From an uncultured Alphaproteobacteria bacterium (GTDB lineage Bacteria > Pseudomonadota > Alphaproteobacteria > Parvibaculales > Parvibaculaceae): DNA of 64,000 nucleotides. The stretch covers positions 77,682 to 141,681 of the forward strand of contig CAVOKW010000035.1 of assembly GCA_963696585.1 (NCBI GenBank). The letters run 5' to 3'. The translations under genes were made by a program, and so were the position numbers. The notes under the pieces were generated by a model. The model saw only the letters and a program-made list of their open reading frames with translations, made no database searches and had not been told where the DNA came from. Below, piece after piece: positions 27,240 through 50,110 of this stretch (positions are counted from its first letter, which is position 1; each line of letters starts with the position of its first letter).

Positions 27240-28124
27240 TGCCCGGACGAGCCGGACCATGACGATTTTTCAAAGGCACACTGGCCCTCACCCCCTCATC
27301 CTCGCCGGACCTTCGGTCCGTCTCTCCCTCTCCCCTGAGGGGAGAGGGCAAGCGTGTCGACGGCAGGCGTGCGCGCGATTTTCTGGCCGTTCACGCCGAG
27401 CGCATCAAAGCGCATCTGGTCCATGCCGTCATATTTGCCGCCGTAGATGAGCGTCGGGCCTTTAATCCCCCCAGCATCTTACAAGTGTCATGCCCGGACT
27501 TGATCCGGGCATCCAGAGACGCAAATTCAAAAGCGGTCGCTCTGGATTGCCGGGTCAAGCCCGGCAATGACAACTGAATTTTGTGCCTCTTAATGGCGGG
27601 CGGATGACAGCAGAAGACGGGGATGGCCCGGACAAGCCGGGCCATGACGATTTTTCAAAGGCACACTGGCCCTCACCCCCTCACCCTCGCCGGACCTTCG
27701 GTCCGTCTCTCCCTCTCCCCTGAGGGGAGAGGGCAAGCGTGTCGACGGCAGGCGTGCGCGCGATTTTCTGGCCGTTCACGCCGAGCGCATCAAAGCGCAT
27801 CTGGTCCATGCCGTCATATTTGCCGCCGTAGATGAGCGTCGGGCCCTTAATCCCCCCAGCATCTTACAAGTGTCATGCCCGGACTTGATCCGGGCATCCA
27901 GAGACGCAAATTCAAAAGCGGTCGCTCTGGATTGCCGGGTCAAGCCCGGCAATGACAACTGAATTTTGTGCCTCTTAATGGCGGGCGGATGACAGCAGAA
28001 GACGGGGATGGCCCGGACAAGCCGGACCATGACGATTTTTCAAAGGCACACTGGCCCTCACCCCCTCATCCTCGCCGGACCTTCGGTCCGTCTCTCCCTC
28101 TCCCCTGAGGGGAGAGGGCAAGCG
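27240..28124. repeat. Tandem repeat of a 385-bp REP-mosaic unit (~2.3 copies)
   Basis: Same sequence at 27251, 27636 and 28021; unit holds a CCCTCACCC/GGGAGAGGG element, a gene fragment and a GTCAT doublet. Confidence 0.95.
27347..27421 (-). pseudogene. Sulfatase N-terminal fragment inside the 385-bp unit (second copy +385)
   Basis: Translates DQMRFDALGVNGQKIARTPAVDTLA, matching the sulfatase DQxRxDxLGxxG...TPxxDxLA motif. Confidence 0.7.
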
Positions 28125-41557: not shown

Positions 41558-42340
41558 TCACTTGTTGAGAGAGGAAGTCTCTCCGACCATCTGTGCTGGA
41601 CGCAGTTCCGTCAGGGTCCGGTTTTTCAGTGCCTTGTTGGCGAGAGCCGCGGTGACGAAGGGTGCGATGGTGCCCACTGGCGGCAGCGGCTGCATGGCGA
41701 TGTGACGAAAGCTGCGTTTGTCGAGATTGACCCAGATATAGGGCCGTTCACGCGACTGGCGTTTGACCCAGGTGTATGGCGTATCTACCCAGGCCACGAT
41801 CTGCCAGTTCTTGTTGTCGAGGATATATTCGCCCTTATCCGTCTCGACGACGAGTACGGCATGGCCTTCGCCGTTCCATTCGCGCACCACTGTGATCAGC
41901 AAGCTGTCGGCAGGCCAGCCGCGATCTATCAGAAGCTTCTGCTTGAGCATGGCCAGATCTTCGCAATCACCGCCCTGGGCACCGGCTACCGCCCACCATT
42001 CCGCGCGCTGATAAAGCTCATCATCCTCGCGCTGGGGTATGTTGCGATTGACATATTCATTCACTTCGTTGAGTTGCGACCAGCGCTCAGCGGTGAGTTC
42101 GGGATTTACGGGCCGATCATTGCCACCGGCGCATTGCTCGGCATTGCGCAGGCAATAGCCGATATAGCCGACGGGCGGCACGACCTGCTGGCCGACAGGC
42201 ATGGTCTCTGACATATGCTGCAACAGTGCCGGATCATTGTTCATTGCCAGCGGTGACAAGGAGGTTGTGCCGCCAGTGACGGCGCATCCACCCAGAGCGG
42301 AGACGAGAAGAACTGCTCCAACGACTTTACCGTACCACAT
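41558..42340 (-). CDS. Transglutaminase-like cysteine peptidase (BTLCP), lipoprotein-like signal
   Basis: GDCEDLAMLK, GHAVLVV, YILDN; LGGC lipobox-like motif. Confidence 0.92.
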   Translation of the reverse strand: MWYGKVVGAVLLVSALGGCAVTGGTTSLSPLAMNNDPALLQHMSETMPVGQQVVPPVGYIGYCLRNAEQCAGGNDRPVNPELTAERWSQLNEVNEYVNRNIPQREDDELYQRAEWWAVAGAQGGDCEDLAMLKQKLLIDRGWPADSLLITVVREWNGEGHAVLVVETDKGEYILDNKNWQIVAWVDTPYTWVKRQSRERPYIWVNLDKRSFRHIAMQPLPPVGTIAPFVTAALANKALKNRTLTELRPAQMVGETSSLNK

Positions 42341-42702: not shown

Positions 42703-43335
42703 TCAGCCGAAGGGGCGCGAAAGGGCGCTGGCGCGTTCGGGAATTTCCGTAAATTCGATGGCGATGCCTTCGATCGTATGGCGCACGATGCGGCCCTTCA
42801 TGCGGCCAATCGAGACATTGGTGCCAAGCGGTGGCTTGATTTCCGTGGCGACATTGGCGCCGCCGAGCGACATGTCAACGATACGGCAGGGCGCCGTGCG
42901 ACCATCGGGCAGGGTCACGACCGAGCCTTCCTCAATGCCCGCCTCTTTTGGCGCATAGCGCGGAAAGGCGCGCTTGGCCGCGATATCCTCCGGCGATTGC
43001 CCCCTGGCGATGGAATCAAGTTTGGCCTGCAAGCGCTCACGGCGCGGTCCGCTGATTGCCGTGGCAATGGCAAAGCCACCGTCGAATGATCGGGCGACAA
43101 CGCCTTCAAAGCGGCCAAAATCTTCGAGATAGATGATGATGTTGTCGCCAATGCTGACGAGCACGTCGCTATTGAGCGCGATGCCGCCAAGCGACATGTC
43201 CCGGATCGAGCATTCATGCTCGGTTCCATCAGTCGCCAAGAAGCGCCCTTTCGCAGAAACTGCGATTCGGGGATGCTGGCGGCGTTCGTGACCCTCAGGC
43301 TGCATATTTTCGACCGATGGCTGGCTTTGTGTCAT
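42703..43335 (-). CDS. Tandem PilZ-domain protein
   Basis: ERRQHPR/DMSLGG and KRAFPR/DMSLGG. Confidence 0.93.
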   Translation of the reverse strand: MTQSQPSVENMQPEGHERRQHPRIAVSAKGRFLATDGTEHECSIRDMSLGGIALNSDVLVSIGDNIIIYLEDFGRFEGVVARSFDGGFAIATAISGPRRERLQAKLDSIARGQSPEDIAAKRAFPRYAPKEAGIEEGSVVTLPDGRTAPCRIVDMSLGGANVATEIKPPLGTNVSIGRMKGRIVRHTIEGIAIEFTEIPERASALSRPFG

Positions 43336-45288: not shown

Positions 45289-45963
45289 TTATTTGTGATC
45301 TTCCGTGCGGTGGATCGCTGATTTGACGAGCCGCAGATAAGAACGCTCCGAACGCATGGGCGGGCGGCGCATCGCCATATTGGCAATGGTGCCTGACGCA
45401 ATGACGGGTGGTTTTTCGCGCATGATGCGACGGGCCACCGATTCAGCCTTGTATTCGCGCTTTGGCATTTTTTCCGGATTGAGAATCTGGAGACGGTCGA
45501 TCCATTGGCGTGCCAGAAGATGGTCGCCGATCCAGGCATGCTGTTCGGCGGGAACGGCCGCGCCGAGAATACGTGCGATGGCCCCATTTTCGGCGGCAAG
45601 CGGCATCAGGATCATTTCGAAGGCCGCTTCACGCTGCTGGCTTGTGGCAGCGGTATATTCGACGATGGCGATGTTGGCGGCACCGGTCACGTCTTCCAGC
45701 GCGTGCTTGATATTGTCGAGACAATCATCCTGCCACATGGAGAGAATGTTGTGGCCGCGGAACTCCATGCCGTAGGCACTGCACAGGCCGGTTCCTGCCA
45801 GACGGAAGGCATAGGACCAATCGTCCTGTCGCTCCAGAATGAACACATAGGGCAGGAGGCGCTTGATATCGCCGGGCTCGATTTCGCTGCGCTTGGGCGC
45901 GAGACGGCCAGCGCGCATGGCGTTCCAGTAATCAAACAGCGCCTGATTTGTCTTGTGTTTCAT
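45289..45963 (-). CDS. PAS_5-like domain protein
   Basis: LFDYWNAMRAGRLAPKRSEIEP, FRLAGTGLC, FEMILMPL. Confidence 0.85.
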   Translation of the reverse strand: MKHKTNQALFDYWNAMRAGRLAPKRSEIEPGDIKRLLPYVFILERQDDWSYAFRLAGTGLCSAYGMEFRGHNILSMWQDDCLDNIKHALEDVTGAANIAIVEYTAATSQQREAAFEMILMPLAAENGAIARILGAAVPAEQHAWIGDHLLARQWIDRLQILNPEKMPKREYKAESVARRIMREKPPVIASGTIANMAMRRPPMRSERSYLRLVKSAIHRTEDHK

Positions 45964-46179: not shown

Positions 46180-46317
46180 GATGTTAATGGCAGTTATGCG
46201 AAATCATTGTCACAGTCTCATTTCTGTACAAATTAATTCAATTAAAACAGTACGTTAGATTTTTTTCGCTGACAATTTCAAGCGCATTAAAACGTTAATT
46301 TTCCATCCGCCGCGTTG

Positions 46318-46332
46318 TGGCGCAAGGTTTGC
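46318..46332 (+). promoter_or_regulatory. Candidate sigma54 promoter for the Asn-rich gene
   Basis: TGGCGC-AAGGT-TTGC (GG-N10-GC). Confidence 0.65.
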
Positions 46333-46471
46333 GAGGGAGGTAATGGCTCAGGATTAGTCACTCTCGCATGTACCATGCGCGAATTTGCTGCGGCACATCT
46401 TTCGCATTGTGGGAGCGGGAGTCCCTGATTTTAGCAGGACAGCGTGCCCAATTGGGGCCGGGAGTGTCACG

Positions 46472-47506
46472 ATGAAACAGTTTTCAAAATATCTGGCAGG
46501 CGCATCGGTTGCCGTCGTGTTGGGCGCGGGGCTTTTTGCCTTTGCGGGCATGACCCCGGCCTATGCGGGCAGCAGCGGTTGCGACACAGGATGTCAGCCG
46601 CCTCCACCCCCGCCCGCCGATGATTGCGGCTGTGATGGTGGCGGTCACGATGACGGCGGCGGCGACGGCGACAGTCATGGTCATGGTGGCGGCAGCGGCA
46701 GCAACTCCAACGCCAATACGAACATCAACAAGAACACCAACATCAATGACAACACCAACACAAATAACAACAACAACACGAACAACAACACCAACACGAA
46801 CAACAACAATGTCGAAGTGAACAACGAGATCAATATTGACGTCACTGTTGATGCGAGCAGCAGCTCGAACAGCGATAGCAGCAGCAACAGTTCATCGTCC
46901 TCTTCAGCGCAGGCGGCCGCAGATGCAGCGGCGCAGAGCCAGGTCAGCAATGCGACCAGCACATCCTCGCGTCGCAATGCGTTGTTTGGCGATGAAGTTC
47001 GTGGTGCGGGTGGCACGGTCTATCAGGCGCCGCGTCCCCAGATTTCGATGGGACCGATTGTTGTTGTGGAGCGTCAGAGCAAACGTGGCCTGCGGCCTGT
47101 GAAGGGCGTCTGCCTTGATGCCAAAGGCGGTGAAGATACGGCGTTTCTGTCGGTTGACGACAAGCGCGTCGATATCAGCAAGGGCCGTGGCGAGCTGATG
47201 TATTGCCGTTCCGGCGAAACGCTGGTCGCGACGGTTGGCGTGATGACGCAAGATGATGGCGCGGCGCCCGATTATACGGGTGGCTATGTCATTGAATGTC
47301 AGGATGGCGAAACGCTGAACTATGGCGACGAGGGCCGACTGGCCTGTGTGGCGGGCGGACGTCATGCCGCCGGTGCCTCGCGGGCACATGGTCTGGCTGG
47401 CGGTCGCTATGCCGAGCTGTTCCTGACCAAGGAAAGCATTGAGGAGAGCGCCTCTGCCGTCACCTATGCGGGCGCGACGACCTTTAGTGGCGGTGTCGGC
47501 TACTGA
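46472..47506 (+). CDS. Secreted protein with Asn/Thr ladder, Ser/Ala tract and Cys-containing C-terminal domain
   Basis: GGGAG RBS; signal peptide ending AYA; NSNANTNINKNTNINDNTNTNNNNNT...; four Cys in the C-domain. Confidence 0.85.
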   Translation: MKQFSKYLAGASVAVVLGAGLFAFAGMTPAYAGSSGCDTGCQPPPPPPADDCGCDGGGHDDGGGDGDSHGHGGGSGSNSNANTNINKNTNINDNTNTNNNNNTNNNTNTNNNNVEVNNEINIDVTVDASSSSNSDSSSNSSSSSSAQAAADAAAQSQVSNATSTSSRRNALFGDEVRGAGGTVYQAPRPQISMGPIVVVERQSKRGLRPVKGVCLDAKGGEDTAFLSVDDKRVDISKGRGELMYCRSGETLVATVGVMTQDDGAAPDYTGGYVIECQDGETLNYGDEGRLACVAGGRHAAGASRAHGLAGGRYAELFLTKESIEESASAVTYAGATTFSGGVGY

Positions 47507-47527
47507 TCCGGTCAACAGGGCTGATTG

Positions 47528-47557
47528 AACGGGGAGGGCGAAAGCTCTCCCCGTTTT
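47528..47557 (+). terminator. Intrinsic terminator
   Basis: AACGGGGAGGGC-gaaa-GCTCTCCCCGTT-TTT. Confidence 0.85.
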
Positions 47558-47607
47558 TGTTTTGTCGCAGCCTCAGACGCGTTCCAGCCGATCACACCGG
47601 GGCCGAC

Positions 47608-48496
47608 CTTGAAGGCTGTAAAGACGTGGATGGCCCGAACAAGTCGGACCATGACGATGTTGACAGGATTGCGTCTTGTCCGGGTCAAGCCCGGCCATGA
47701 CTGTGGCATGGATCCCGGGAGTGAATCCCGGGATGACAGACTTATAATCCGTCATGCCCCGCTTCAGGCGGGGCATCCACGACTTGAAGGCTGTAAAGAC
47801 GTGGATGGCCCGAACAAGTCGGACCATGACGATGTTGACAGGATTGCGTCTTGTCCGGGTCAAGCCTGGCCATGACAAGTGGCATGGATCCCGGGAATGA
47901 ATCCCGGGATGACAGACTTATAATCCGTCATGCCCCGCTTCAGGCGGGGCATCCACGACTTGAAGGCTGTAAAGACGTGGATGGCCCGAACAAGTCGGAC
48001 CATGACGATGTTGACAGGATTGCGTCTTGTCCGGGTCAAGCCTGGCCATGACAAGTGGCATGGATCCCGGGAATAAATCCCGGGATGACGCTTGAAAACA
48101 ATGGGCGTCATGCCCCGCTTCAGGCGGGGCATCCACGACTTGAAGGCTGTAAAGACGTGGATGGCCCGAACAAGTCGGACCATGACGATGTTGACAGGAT
48201 TGCGTCTTGTCCGGGTCAAGCCTGGCCATGACTGTGGCATGGATCCCGGGAATGAATCCCGGGATGACAGACTTATAATCCGTCATGCCCCGCTTCAGGC
48301 GGGGCATCCACGACTTGAAGGCTGTAAAGACGTGGATGGCCCGAACAAGTCGGACCATGACGATGTTGACAGGATTGCGTCTTGTCCGGGTCAAGCCTGG
48401 CCATGACTGTGGCATGGATCCCGGGAATAAATCCCGGGATGACAGACTTAAAATAATGGGCGTCATGCCCCGCTTCAGGCGGGGCATCCACGACTT
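47608..48496. repeat. Tandem array of five 175-180-bp REP-mosaic units
   Basis: CTTGAAGGCTGTAAAG starts at 47608, 47783, 47959, 48139 and 48314; four GTCAT/ATGAC-type hairpins per unit. Confidence 0.97.
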
Positions 48497-48524
48497 CTGT
48501 TGTCACTCCGGTGTGATTTGTCAG

Positions 48525-48614
48525 CCCCCTCACCCGCGCTCGCGTTGCTCGCTTGCCCTCTCCCCTCAGGGGAGAGGGAGAGACGGACCGCAAGGTCCGG
48601 CGAGGGTGAGGGGT
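48525..48614. repeat. CCCTCACCC/GGGAGAGGG-type palindromic element
   Basis: Near-identical reverse complement of 28064-28152. Confidence 0.85.
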
Positions 48615-48636
48615 CCATGCCTTCAACAACACGCAC

Positions 48637-48669
48637 AAAAAAAGAGGAAGGCTTCGAGCCTTCCTCTTT
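48637..48669 (-). terminator. Intrinsic terminator of hfaB-like gene
   Basis: AAAGAGGAAGGCT-tcg-AGCCTTCCTCTTT preceded by an A run (T run on minus strand). Confidence 0.85.
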
Positions 48670-48697
48670 GTACTGACAGACTGTCGAAGGTCACGTG

Positions 48698-49708
48698 TCA
48701 GTTGGTGCTGCCGCGCAGGTCGCTCGAGTCGAAGGTTGGTGCGCGGTAATAGTCGTAAGGGTCCTTGATCTGTGTCGTGGCGACGATAGCCTCGGTGCGG
48801 GGCGAGGGTTTCTGGAACTCGATCTTGCCCAGCGGGTCGCCATTGGCGCCGAAGTTCGTGCAGCTTGTCGGGTTCACATTATAGAGCGGCACGACCATTT
48901 CGAGCACGGCGCGTTCGATGACCGAGCGGACGCCAAGCTGGAGCGGCTCGTTGGCGCGTTCGCCAGCCCCGAGGCTGAAGAGATTGCCGCCGAGAATGTC
49001 GAAGACGCCAGCGCTGATTTCGCGGCCGATGATCTGCTTCTGATAGGAAACAACATTGATGACTTCGAGCGTTTCGCTGTTCACGAGGCGCATGTCGATG
49101 CCGACATTCATGACGAACTGACGGGCATTGAGCGAGGCGCCGGTGTCGCCGCTGCCGGCTGTGTAGCCCGCATCAATGCCACCATTGCGGATGTCGTAAT
49201 TGAGTTCGGTGATGCCGCCGACGAGGTAGTAATTGCTGCCCTGAATGGAGCCCGCCATGATCTTGCGATAGTCGCCCGTGTCGGCCTGCACATTGTCGCC
49301 GATGAGTTTGGAGCTGGCATATTTCAGCTCAAGTTCGGTGACCGATGTGTCATAGCGCTCGACAAGGCGCACATGGGCTTTTGACAGGGCCGAAATCGCC
49401 ATCAGCGACCCGCCCTGGGTCACGGCCGGGCCGCCATCCTTGTCGATCTTGCCTGTGTAGTCGCGAATATTGCCAACAGCGATGCGCGGGGCGTCGTTCA
49501 TGCGGCCAATCGCCGTGCCGACGCAGCGCAGCGCCGAGGAATAAGGTGTTTCATTGTTGATGACGGGCGCATTGCCGATGGGGGTCGTGTAGCGGCCATC
49601 GCTGCCCGCATTGGGGCTGATGCAACCCGTGAGCGACAAGGTCAGGCCGAGCAAAGCCGCGATCCGCTTGGGACCGTTCTTCTCTCTCACATATGTGAAT
49701 GCCGGCAT
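48698..49708 (-). CDS. hfaB: HfaB/CsgG-family outer-membrane lipoprotein (336 aa)
   Basis: Lipobox LTGC; GRYTTPIGNAPVINNETPYSSALRC, AVGNIRDYTGK, VTQGGSLMAISALSKA, LVERYD, GGITELNY, NEPLQLGVR. Confidence 0.85.
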   Translation of the reverse strand: MPAFTYVREKNGPKRIAALLGLTLSLTGCISPNAGSDGRYTTPIGNAPVINNETPYSSALRCVGTAIGRMNDAPRIAVGNIRDYTGKIDKDGGPAVTQGGSLMAISALSKAHVRLVERYDTSVTELELKYASSKLIGDNVQADTGDYRKIMAGSIQGSNYYLVGGITELNYDIRNGGIDAGYTAGSGDTGASLNARQFVMNVGIDMRLVNSETLEVINVVSYQKQIIGREISAGVFDILGGNLFSLGAGERANEPLQLGVRSVIERAVLEMVVPLYNVNPTSCTNFGANGDPLGKIEFQKPSPRTEAIVATTQIKDPYDYYRAPTFDSSDLRGSTN

Positions 49709-49752
49709 CGTCACTTGGCTCACCTTGATAGCGAATTGTTCCAACTCATGAG

Positions 49753-49768
49753 TGCAACGGGTGTGCCA
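49753..49768 (-). promoter_or_regulatory. Consensus sigma54 promoter of hfaB-like gene
   Basis: TGGCAC-ACCCG-TTGCA, ~45 nt upstream of ATG. Confidence 0.8.
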
Positions 49769-49772
49769 GCGT

Positions 49773-49798
49773 AAAGCTCTTGTTAACGAATGAGCTTT
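49773..49798. promoter_or_regulatory. Inverted repeat abutting the -24 element (candidate operator)
   Basis: AAAGCTC-ttGTTAACgaat-GAGCTTT. Confidence 0.45.
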
Positions 49799-49970: not shown

Positions 49971-50110
49971 ATGGCGCGGCTTGAGTTCTTTTTCGATTGT
50001 TCAAGTCCATGGACTTGTTTGGCTCGCCAACGATGTTTGTGAACAAGACTGACATGTATTTTGGCAATGATCGTTTGCCATTGGTGGAGGCTGCGCTTGA
50101 GCGTTCCTGA
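49971..50110 (+). pseudogene. HCCA isomerase/DsbA-family remnant with large internal deletion
   Basis: RBS + MARLEFFFDCSSPWT joined out of frame to FGSPTMFVNKTDMYFGNDRLPLVEAALERS*. Confidence 0.85.

Follow-up and report, generated by a model that had tools for sequence, protein, structure and literature searches.

A probable reduced holdfast-anchor locus, hfaB with a divergent hfaE, in a Parvibaculum-like alphaproteobacterium

This report concerns a pair of convergent genes in a 64-kb stretch of DNA (64,000 nucleotides, hereafter the window) from an uncultured alphaproteobacterium of the Parvibaculaceae (contig CAVOKW010000035.1). Reading of its open reading frames (ORFs) places an Asn-rich gene on the forward strand, here called hfaE-like, opposite hfaB on the reverse strand, with a gap of 1.2 kb between them (Table 1). 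Both genes are real and each has its own terminator, a hairpin followed by a T-run, as had been proposed from the letters of the DNA without database searches (the sequence-only reading). That reading was also right that no hfaA, hfaD, or curli gene is present at the locus: no curli gene adjoins the pair, and jackhmmer detected no homolog of HfaA or HfaD in any frame of the window. We consider it probable that this is a reduced holdfast-anchor (hfa) locus of a Parvibaculum-like alphaproteobacterium, in which hfaB and a divergent hfaE have been kept in their ancestral convergent positions.

Profile matches identify the product of hfaB as the HfaB lipoprotein of the CsgG superfamily. It scored 360.9 bits against the NCBIfam model NF037935 (holdfast_HfaB; equivalog cutoff 300), covering profile positions 2–263 of 264, and 62.5 bits against Pfam CsgG. 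Its lipobox reads LSLTG-C29, and C29 is invariant in 18 homologs. A profile of the HfaB family matched CsgG in the PDB with an E value of 3e-10. The best Foldseek matches of the HfaB model were likewise all CsgG (E 1.7e-8), for a model of low confidence (18 sequences; predicted local distance difference test score, pLDDT, of 51). The window gene does not lie in an hfaA-hfaB-hfaD operon, which is a feature of its context and not of the protein family.

The hfaE-like gene is preceded by a Shine-Dalgarno sequence (GGGAG at 46460–46464), and its product begins with MKQ, followed by a hydrophobic helix (residues 7–24) and a predicted cleavage site between AYA and G. Behind an N-terminal Cys/Pro motif (CxxGC-PPPPPP-DCGC) come a Gly/His/Asp stretch and the strictly alternating (N-x)n tract, which Tandem Repeats Finder (TRF) registered as an AAC-type periodicity at 46702–46809. 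A Ser-rich and then an Ala-rich stretch follow the tract. Of the eight Cys in the protein, five are invariant in the family alignment and one is nearly so. The protein is thus Cys-rich and is predicted to be secreted, properties expected of the HfaE family. AlphaFold, run with a 25-sequence alignment, was confident only at residues ~196–330 (pLDDT ~90), where it predicts an all-beta domain.

Searches of structures and of general profile collections gave little for this protein. No solved relative of the confident C-terminal domain was found in the PDB by Foldseek (best E 0.44), and a profile search of PDB sequences returned nothing. When the Asn-rich protein and six of its homologs were scanned against NCBIfam and a Pfam set that does not include PF26654, only low-complexity noise resulted. 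Neither the HfaA profile (NF037934) nor the HfaD profile (NF037936) matched the protein at E up to 1; in Henriciella, the two models do detect true HfaA and HfaD. Searches with jackhmmer from HfaA and HfaD did not reach it, and no curlin repeat (CsgA/CsgB) was among its Pfam matches at E up to 1. Judged by these comparisons, the Asn-rich protein is unrelated to HfaA, HfaD, and curlin.

Homology identifies the Asn-rich protein as a member of a divergent HfaE subfamily within the Pfam family PF26654 (DUF8217). In a collection of 5.8 billion proteins it has 28 homologs at E up to 1e-3, all 28 of which carry a precomputed PF26654 assignment. A hidden Markov model (HMM) of its C-terminal domain matched ORFs convergent to hfaB at 38–69 bits in Henriciella, Ponticaulis, Robiginitomaculum, Caulobacteraceae, and others. 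Because these ORFs bear the published HfaE motifs PHPAS(Q/R), CNERSLLR, and DGGVG, we take them to be true HfaE. An hhalign comparison of the window subfamily with true HfaE gave 99.6% probability (E 9.8e-25, 115 columns), with aligned blocks VxxVC(I/L)D, GE(L/I)xxC, TxG, CxxGEAL, and LxC.

Broader searches placed the protein in a large family. With the alignment of true HfaE, 568 proteins were found at E up to 0.001; among the 120 matches listed, all belong to PF26654 and are named 'hypothetical'. With the window family profile, an exhaustive HMMER search among 1.84 billion cluster representatives returned 215 proteins at E up to 1e-3. Fourteen of these are close; the others make up a continuum of HfaE-type proteins whose matches fall mainly in the C-terminal domain. 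Sampled members have a common architecture of signal peptide, Cys/Pro motif, lineage-specific repeats, conserved domain, and terminal GGVG; the repeats vary by lineage, being V/P-rich in some and I-N-K hexapeptide-like, Q/N-rich, or (N-x)n in others. Together, homology, architecture, Pfam family, and genomic position indicate that the Asn-rich protein is an Hfa protein and that the system is a derivative of the described one.

HfaE (CC_2639/Hbal_0649) was described by Chepkwony, Hardy and Brun (10.1101/2022.07.20.500906) as a secreted, Cys-rich protein encoded near the hfa operon, with a divergent N-terminal half, a conserved C-terminal half, and the signature motifs PHPASQV, CNERSLLR, and DGGVG. 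It is an HfaB-dependent holdfast anchor protein that forms multimers resistant to sodium dodecyl sulfate (SDS) and is needed to hold the holdfast on the cell, and genetics in two Caulobacterales species place it downstream of HfaB (10.1101/2022.07.20.500906). In the same study the hfaB mutant was more severe than the hfaA hfaD hfaE triple mutant, and HfaE and HfaA were said to be confined to Caulobacterales (10.1101/2022.07.20.500906).

The window locus resembles the Caulobacter crescentus/Hirschia baltica holdfast anchor (HfaA, HfaB, HfaD, HfaE) in several respects. Its HfaB scores as an equivalog (361 bits), and the partner is a member of the HfaE/DUF8217 family. Like HfaE, the partner has a signal peptide and a Cys/Pro motif near the N-terminus, then variable repeats, and finally a conserved C-terminal half that contains Cys and closes with GGVG. 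The hfaE-like gene lies near the hfaB unit and convergent with it, as hfaE does in Hyphomonadaceae, and a sigma54-type promoter stands before the first gene of the hfaB transcription unit. In contrast to the C. crescentus/H. baltica system, the window locus has neither hfaA nor hfaD, and none was seen in genome scans of limited reach; its HfaE-like protein has neither PHPASQV nor CNERSLLR, and an alternating-Asn tract of 18–52 residues replaces the V/P/G-rich repeats. The organism also lies outside Caulobacterales, the order to which HfaE and HfaA were said to be confined (10.1101/2022.07.20.500906).

Likeness to Escherichia coli curli (CsgG with CsgA and CsgB) is more distant. HfaB of the window matches CsgG by profile (E 3e-10) and fold, and the concept is the same: a lipoprotein channel together with a secreted, repeat-bearing, multimer-forming, Asn-rich subunit. 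However, the window has no curlin repeats, csgE, or csgF; unlike curlins, the substrate includes a C-terminal domain that is folded; and HfaB is longer than CsgG (336 versus ~277 residues). Whereas CsgG is the channel of curli, passage through the HfaB channel is only proposed for any HfaE.

The hfaE-like gene and hfaB form a conserved pair, and their pairing is not accidental. A scan of one genome per species gave 29 Asn-rich loci, all in Parvibaculum, Parvibaculaceae, 'Rhodobiaceae', and unclassified alphaproteobacterial metagenome-assembled genomes (MAGs). In 22 of the 29, hfaB lies convergent 2–7 kb downstream of the Asn-rich gene; the other seven are contigs that end too early. The reverse scan from HfaB (80 loci) agrees, every Parvibaculum-type hfaB with enough flank having an Asn-rich gene convergent downstream, and the pairing that the sequence-only reading drew from proximity, shared promoter type, and sequence character is therefore borne out by synteny in both directions. 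The content of the gap varies and can be TetR, MATE, or SMR genes, a 713-residue protein, or repeats, as here.

Maps of 109 loci, made by jackhmmer with HfaA, HfaB, HfaD, and HfaE and with reference genes confirmed by NCBIfam, set this pair among related arrangements. The order hfaA-hfaB-hfaD occurs in Hyphomonadaceae, Caulobacteraceae, Rhizomicrobium/Micropepsaceae, and unclassified alphaproteobacterial MAGs. Among these loci, a convergent hfaE was detected in Hyphomonadaceae, one Caulobacteraceae MAG, and several unclassified MAGs, and none was detected in the Rhizomicrobium/Micropepsaceae loci. Phaeomarinobacter-like genomes have hfaA-hfaB with a short hfaD, and Tepidicaulis and two MAGs have hfaA-hfaB with a convergent hfaE-like gene. 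The Parvibaculum type, including the window, has hfaB with a convergent hfaE-like gene alone, and no homolog of HfaA or HfaD was found within 10 kb of hfaB in these loci.

The flanks are held in common as well, with DUF2157, GDYXXLXY, DUF4389, and rhomboid genes on the hfaB side and PAS_5, GMC oxidoreductase, two-PilZ, and BTLCP genes on the hfaE side. Their order is partly kept into Hyphomonadaceae; in Ponticaulis koreensis (locus L095), hfaE is followed by PAS_5, GMC, and PilZ genes. By this comparison, the order rhomboid / [hfaA] hfaB [hfaD] / hfaE (convergent) / PAS_5 is ancestral, and since it is, the window would represent a reduced canonical hfa locus and not a new association. The Tepidicaulis loci (L050, L058) have identical flanking genes in identical order, and they encode an HfaE-like protein of the window subfamily, scoring 165 bits with the C-terminal HMM and likewise having neither PHPASQV nor CNERSLLR. 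Unlike the window, they retain hfaA, and their HfaE-like protein has I-N-K-type repeats and no (N-x)n tract. The Tepidicaulis locus therefore looks like an intermediate step of the reduction. At the locus itself, hfaA and hfaD are missing. For the whole genome, their absence is suggested at most: among the best 80 of 325 loci in an HfaA scan seeded with Tepidicaulis were three Tepidicaulis loci and no Parvibaculum, and a scan for HfaD by a single narrow motif, which says little on absence, gave 12 loci.

Promoters were scored against TGGCAC-N5-TTGCW, with GG and GC required. At least 10 of 11 positions of the hfaB element are kept in 39 of 42 distinct Parvibaculum-type upstream regions, with a chance expectation of 0.014 per region. 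Upstream of hfaE-like, an element with at least 8 of 11 positions and invariant GG/GC lies at −73 to −102 in all distinct orthologous upstream regions (50/50; chance 0.024 per region) and has the form CGGCA(C/T)-N5/6-(T/C)(T/C)GCA. In the upstream alignment, this element and the Shine-Dalgarno sequence are the only conserved islands, the remainder having diverged. The sigma54 promoters that the sequence-only reading assigned to both genes are thus conserved, but it placed that of the Asn-rich gene at 46318, whereas the family-wide element is the one at 46391–46406. Counterparts of the element at 46318–46333, at about −150, are confined to the nearer subclade (L001–L012), and some other hfaE-like loci have a second sigma54-like element at −131 to −149. 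Directly upstream of both elements in the window lies a markedly A+T-rich segment (46220–46305), which may be a DNA-bending or activator-binding region.

Elements of the same type occur more widely in hfa loci. In the loci that keep hfaA (L066–L109), a sigma54-type element was found ~50–70 nt before hfaA in 33 of 42, and true hfaE genes at L084, L107, L109, L086, and L071 have a sigma54-like element at about −48. These loci span Hyphomonadaceae, Caulobacteraceae, Rhizomicrobium, and others, which suggests that the hfa regulon as a whole inherited this promoter type from an ancestor. On the loss of hfaA, the promoter apparently remained where it was. Control of hfaB and hfaE-like by sigma54 is a well-supported prediction.

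Work in Caulobacter and Hirschia suggests how the two products would act together. The HfaE-like protein would cross the inner membrane by the Sec pathway, and HfaB, as a CsgG-like outer-membrane channel, would place it on the cell surface or be needed for its placement. On the surface, the HfaE-like protein may assemble into stable multimers and so fasten a polysaccharide adhesin to the envelope, with the Cys-containing C-terminal beta domain as the presumed functional core of the family. Joint activation of both genes would come from an enhancer-binding protein whose gene lies elsewhere in the genome.

Several observations weigh against interpreting the locus as a reduced, sigma54-controlled hfa anchor. 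The DUF8217 match of a near-identical allele is flagged 'weak', and PHPASQV and CNERSLLR are absent from the whole window subfamily, where an invariant SGGVGY is the counterpart of DGGVG; the conserved Cys and Gly positions flanking the absent motifs still align in hhalign. In C. crescentus, HfaE depends on all of HfaA, HfaB, and HfaD for its localisation, and its multimers form without HfaB (10.1101/2022.07.20.500906), so HfaB may not be the HfaE channel. Since the family shows collinearity over the ~20 kb that surround the pair, linkage within the family is by itself weak evidence of a functional tie. An anchor role, and the presence of a holdfast-like polysaccharide in Parvibaculum-type organisms, are suggested by analogy. 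Two wastewater metatranscriptomes each held one short exact contig, on hfaB only; for hfaE-like transcripts, they gave only AAC low-complexity matches from other organisms. Dependence on sigma54 is predicted from sequence, and the window holds no activator gene or rpoN, with no GAFTGA (activator) or RpoN-box motif in any of its frames. Finally, transcription of hfaA in C. crescentus is reportedly independent of rpoN despite a sigma54-like promoter; on that account, the sigma54-dependent Caulobacter hfa operon that served the sequence-only reading as a premise is doubtful.

The most distinctive part of the HfaE-like protein is the (N-x)n tract. All Parvibaculum-type members have it, at lengths of 18–52 residues (median 32), and it is absent in Tepidicaulis, in true HfaE, and in every lineage that keeps hfaA. 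Lying in the variable repeat region of the family, it would most likely serve as a beta-prone self-association or spacer module. That the tract is an 'Asn ladder' or 'amyloid-like' is something we infer, given the low AlphaFold confidence at the tract and the lack of a solved Foldseek relative. There is an appreciable chance, if less than an even one, that the tract serves merely as a linker, disordered, of low complexity, and prone to slippage, and contributes nothing as a ladder, an amyloid, or an adhesive. AlphaFold predicts no secondary structure there (pLDDT 30–45), quite different repeats occupy the same place in other lineages, and tract length ranges from 18 to 52 residues. One AACAAC unit, encoding two Asn, is missing within 46703–46810 from an environmental allele that is 100% identical in all other respects, a slippage-type length polymorphism. 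However, the strict placement of Asn at every second residue is kept across proteins ~40% identical, with nearly invariant N columns, which argues for selection on the pattern and not on composition alone; the repeats of other lineages at the same place also alternate, favouring beta strands.

A different kind of repeat was observed in another subfamily of HfaE/DUF8217. In P0279, P0280, P0283, P0285, P0289, and locus L083 (13820–14953), long I-N-K-type repeats replace the Asn tract, and these hexapeptide-like repeats weakly match the left-handed beta-helix repeats of LpxD. This likeness suggests that the variable region of the HfaE family can form a beta-solenoid.

A more ambitious account of the tract, which we hold to be rather unlikely, is that after the loss of HfaA (and HfaD) it took over amyloid-like self-assembly, so that HfaB and a chimeric HfaE subunit would complete a minimal two-protein anchor. 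The presence of the tract where hfaA is absent fits this account, yet the correlation represents a single evolutionary event and is therefore of little statistical weight.

We regard it as improbable that the two genes are mere neighbours by general synteny, the HfaE-like product residing in the periplasm or outer membrane and being exported and functioning independently of HfaB. The collinearity of ~20 kb across the family, the unrelated cargo taken up by the gap (TetR, MATE, and SMR genes, repeats), the separate transcription units of hfaB and hfaE-like, and the HfaB-independent multimers of C. crescentus HfaE would all agree with such an arrangement. Nevertheless, hfaB-hfaE persists across orders, even at loci where most other neighbours of the window genes went undetected (L084, L086, L107, L109); both genes keep the same uncommon promoter type; and the genetics in two Caulobacterales species put HfaE downstream of HfaB.

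Very unlikely is the undescribed two-gene adhesin system of the sequence-only reading, with an orphan pore of the HfaB type as exporter of a new amyloid subunit that is neither Hfa nor curli: the locus does hold just these two Hfa-type genes and no hfaA or hfaD, their pairing and promoters are conserved, the (N-x)n tract is lineage-specific, and the Pfam and NCBIfam scans of the Asn-rich protein gave no family match, but the protein has HfaE homology over its conserved domain and the architecture, Pfam family, and genomic position of HfaE, a protein already described as an HfaB-dependent holdfast anchor (10.1101/2022.07.20.500906). A non-Hfa identity was ruled out by the match of the C-terminal HMM to motif-bearing HfaE, the hhalign result (99.6%), and the common PF26654 assignment. 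What remains of the two-gene proposal is a minimal locus with a functional-candidate pair, as a reduced variant of the known holdfast anchor.

Around the pair, the window has rhomboid and DUF4389 genes on the hfaB side and PAS_5 and GMC oxidoreductase genes on the hfaE side. The PAS_5 gene adjoins hfaE or hfaE-like in all Parvibaculum-type loci, Tepidicaulis, L071/L072, L083, and the Hyphomonadaceae loci L095 and L101. It is a conserved neighbour and a possible regulator, with putative membership in the system. Beyond this PAS_5-only gene, which is always divergent from hfaE or hfaE-like, a two-PilZ protein is always found and a LapG-type BTLCP protease often; the hfaE-PAS_5-PilZ neighbourhood runs from the Parvibaculum type to Tepidicaulis and some Hyphomonadaceae (L095, L101). 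The PAS_5, two-PilZ, and BTLCP genes are candidate regulators of the anchor linked to cyclic di-GMP (c-di-GMP).

Table 1. Features of the hfaE-like/hfaB locus, in positions of the 64-kb window.
Feature	Position	Strand	Details
hfaE-like gene (DUF8217/PF26654 family), 344 aa	46472..47506	+	ATG 46472, stop 47506
Predicted signal peptide, Sec-type	46472-46567	+	MKQFSKYLAGASVAVVLGAGLFAFAGMTPAYA, then cleavage between AYA and G, read by eye
CxxGC-PPPPPP-DCGC motif	46568-46639	+	
(N-x)n tract	46703-46810	+	NSNANTNINKNTNINDNTNTNNNNNTNNNTNTNNNN; residues 78-113, 36 residues, strict alternation
C-terminal beta domain (predicted), ~170 aa	~47000-47503	+	four invariant Cys; ends in invariant SGGVGY (25-homolog alignment)
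hfaB, outer-membrane lipoprotein of CsgG superfamily, 336 aa	48698..49708	-	ATG side 49708
sigma54-type element of hfaE-like	46391..46406	+	CGGCACatcttTCGCA; -81 from ATG; family-wide
Second sigma54-like element	46318..46333	+	TGGCGCaaggtTTGCg; -154; 9/11
sigma54 promoter element of hfaB (predicted)	49752..49767	-	TGGCACacccgTTGCA; TGGCAC-N5-TTGCA, 11/11, 60 nt before ATG
Intrinsic-terminator-like hairpin	47527..47556	+	13-bp stem + T-run; 20 nt past hfaE-like stop
Intrinsic-terminator-like hairpin	48641..48669	-	13-bp stem + T-run; past hfaB stop
Tandem repeat, five copies	47608..48496	.	175-bp palindrome-rich unit; TRF, 95% matches
PAS_5 (PF07310) gene	45289..45963	-	Pfam 132 bits; divergent from hfaE-like
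Two-PilZ-domain protein gene	42703-43335		
BTLCP / Peptidase_C93 (LapG-type protease) gene	41558-42340		

The gap between hfaE-like and hfaB is occupied by the five tandem 175-bp repeats, which are not part of the anchor system. The unit occurs nowhere else in the 64 kb and has a DNA fold z of −6.7. Assemblies of relatives break at the repeat site: in the closest relative, MAG RI_261, hfaE-like and hfaB lie at the ends of two different contigs (L001, L030), and Logan contigs with the near-identical hfaE-like allele end just past the gene. Both cases fit with the gap repeats breaking assemblies. A REP-like (repetitive extragenic palindrome) sequence, CTCCCCTCAGGGGAGAGGG, occurs once in this gap, at 48556–48578, and again at 27326–27348, 27711–27733, and 28096–28118; the latter three copies, near 27.3–28.1 kb, are spaced 385 bp apart. 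This palindrome is a source of spurious ORFs.

At 49971–50104 lies what is left of a DsbA-like (PF01323) gene that relatives carry upstream of hfaB. It retains only about residues 2–29 and 172–200, with ~456 bp deleted relative to MAG RI_261 (L030 9217–9674). Loss of this gene may matter because the HfaE-like protein is Cys-rich.

Several aspects of these results are new. The HfaE family reaches outside Caulobacterales, as judged by homology, contrary to the published distribution (10.1101/2022.07.20.500906). In the Parvibaculum-type lineage, hfaB and hfaE-like are all that is kept of the locus, and the HfaE of that lineage has a conserved (N-x)n tract. Across dozens of genomes, promoters of predicted sigma54 type are conserved before hfaA or hfaB and before hfaE-like. 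Near-identical sequence is found in hydrocarbon, oil-sands, oil-field, soil, sediment, and freshwater metagenomes.

These findings link DUF8217 and dozens of Parvibaculum-like 'hypothetical proteins' to HfaE, an experimentally studied holdfast anchor protein. A naturally reduced system of hfaB and hfaE could help to ask what roles HfaB has beyond handling HfaA and HfaD. The conserved sigma54-type promoters, present in several families, and the PAS_5 and PilZ genes that are always nearby provide regulatory leads. In the hydrocarbon-, oil-sands-, and wastewater-type habitats of these organisms, surface attachment may matter for degradation.

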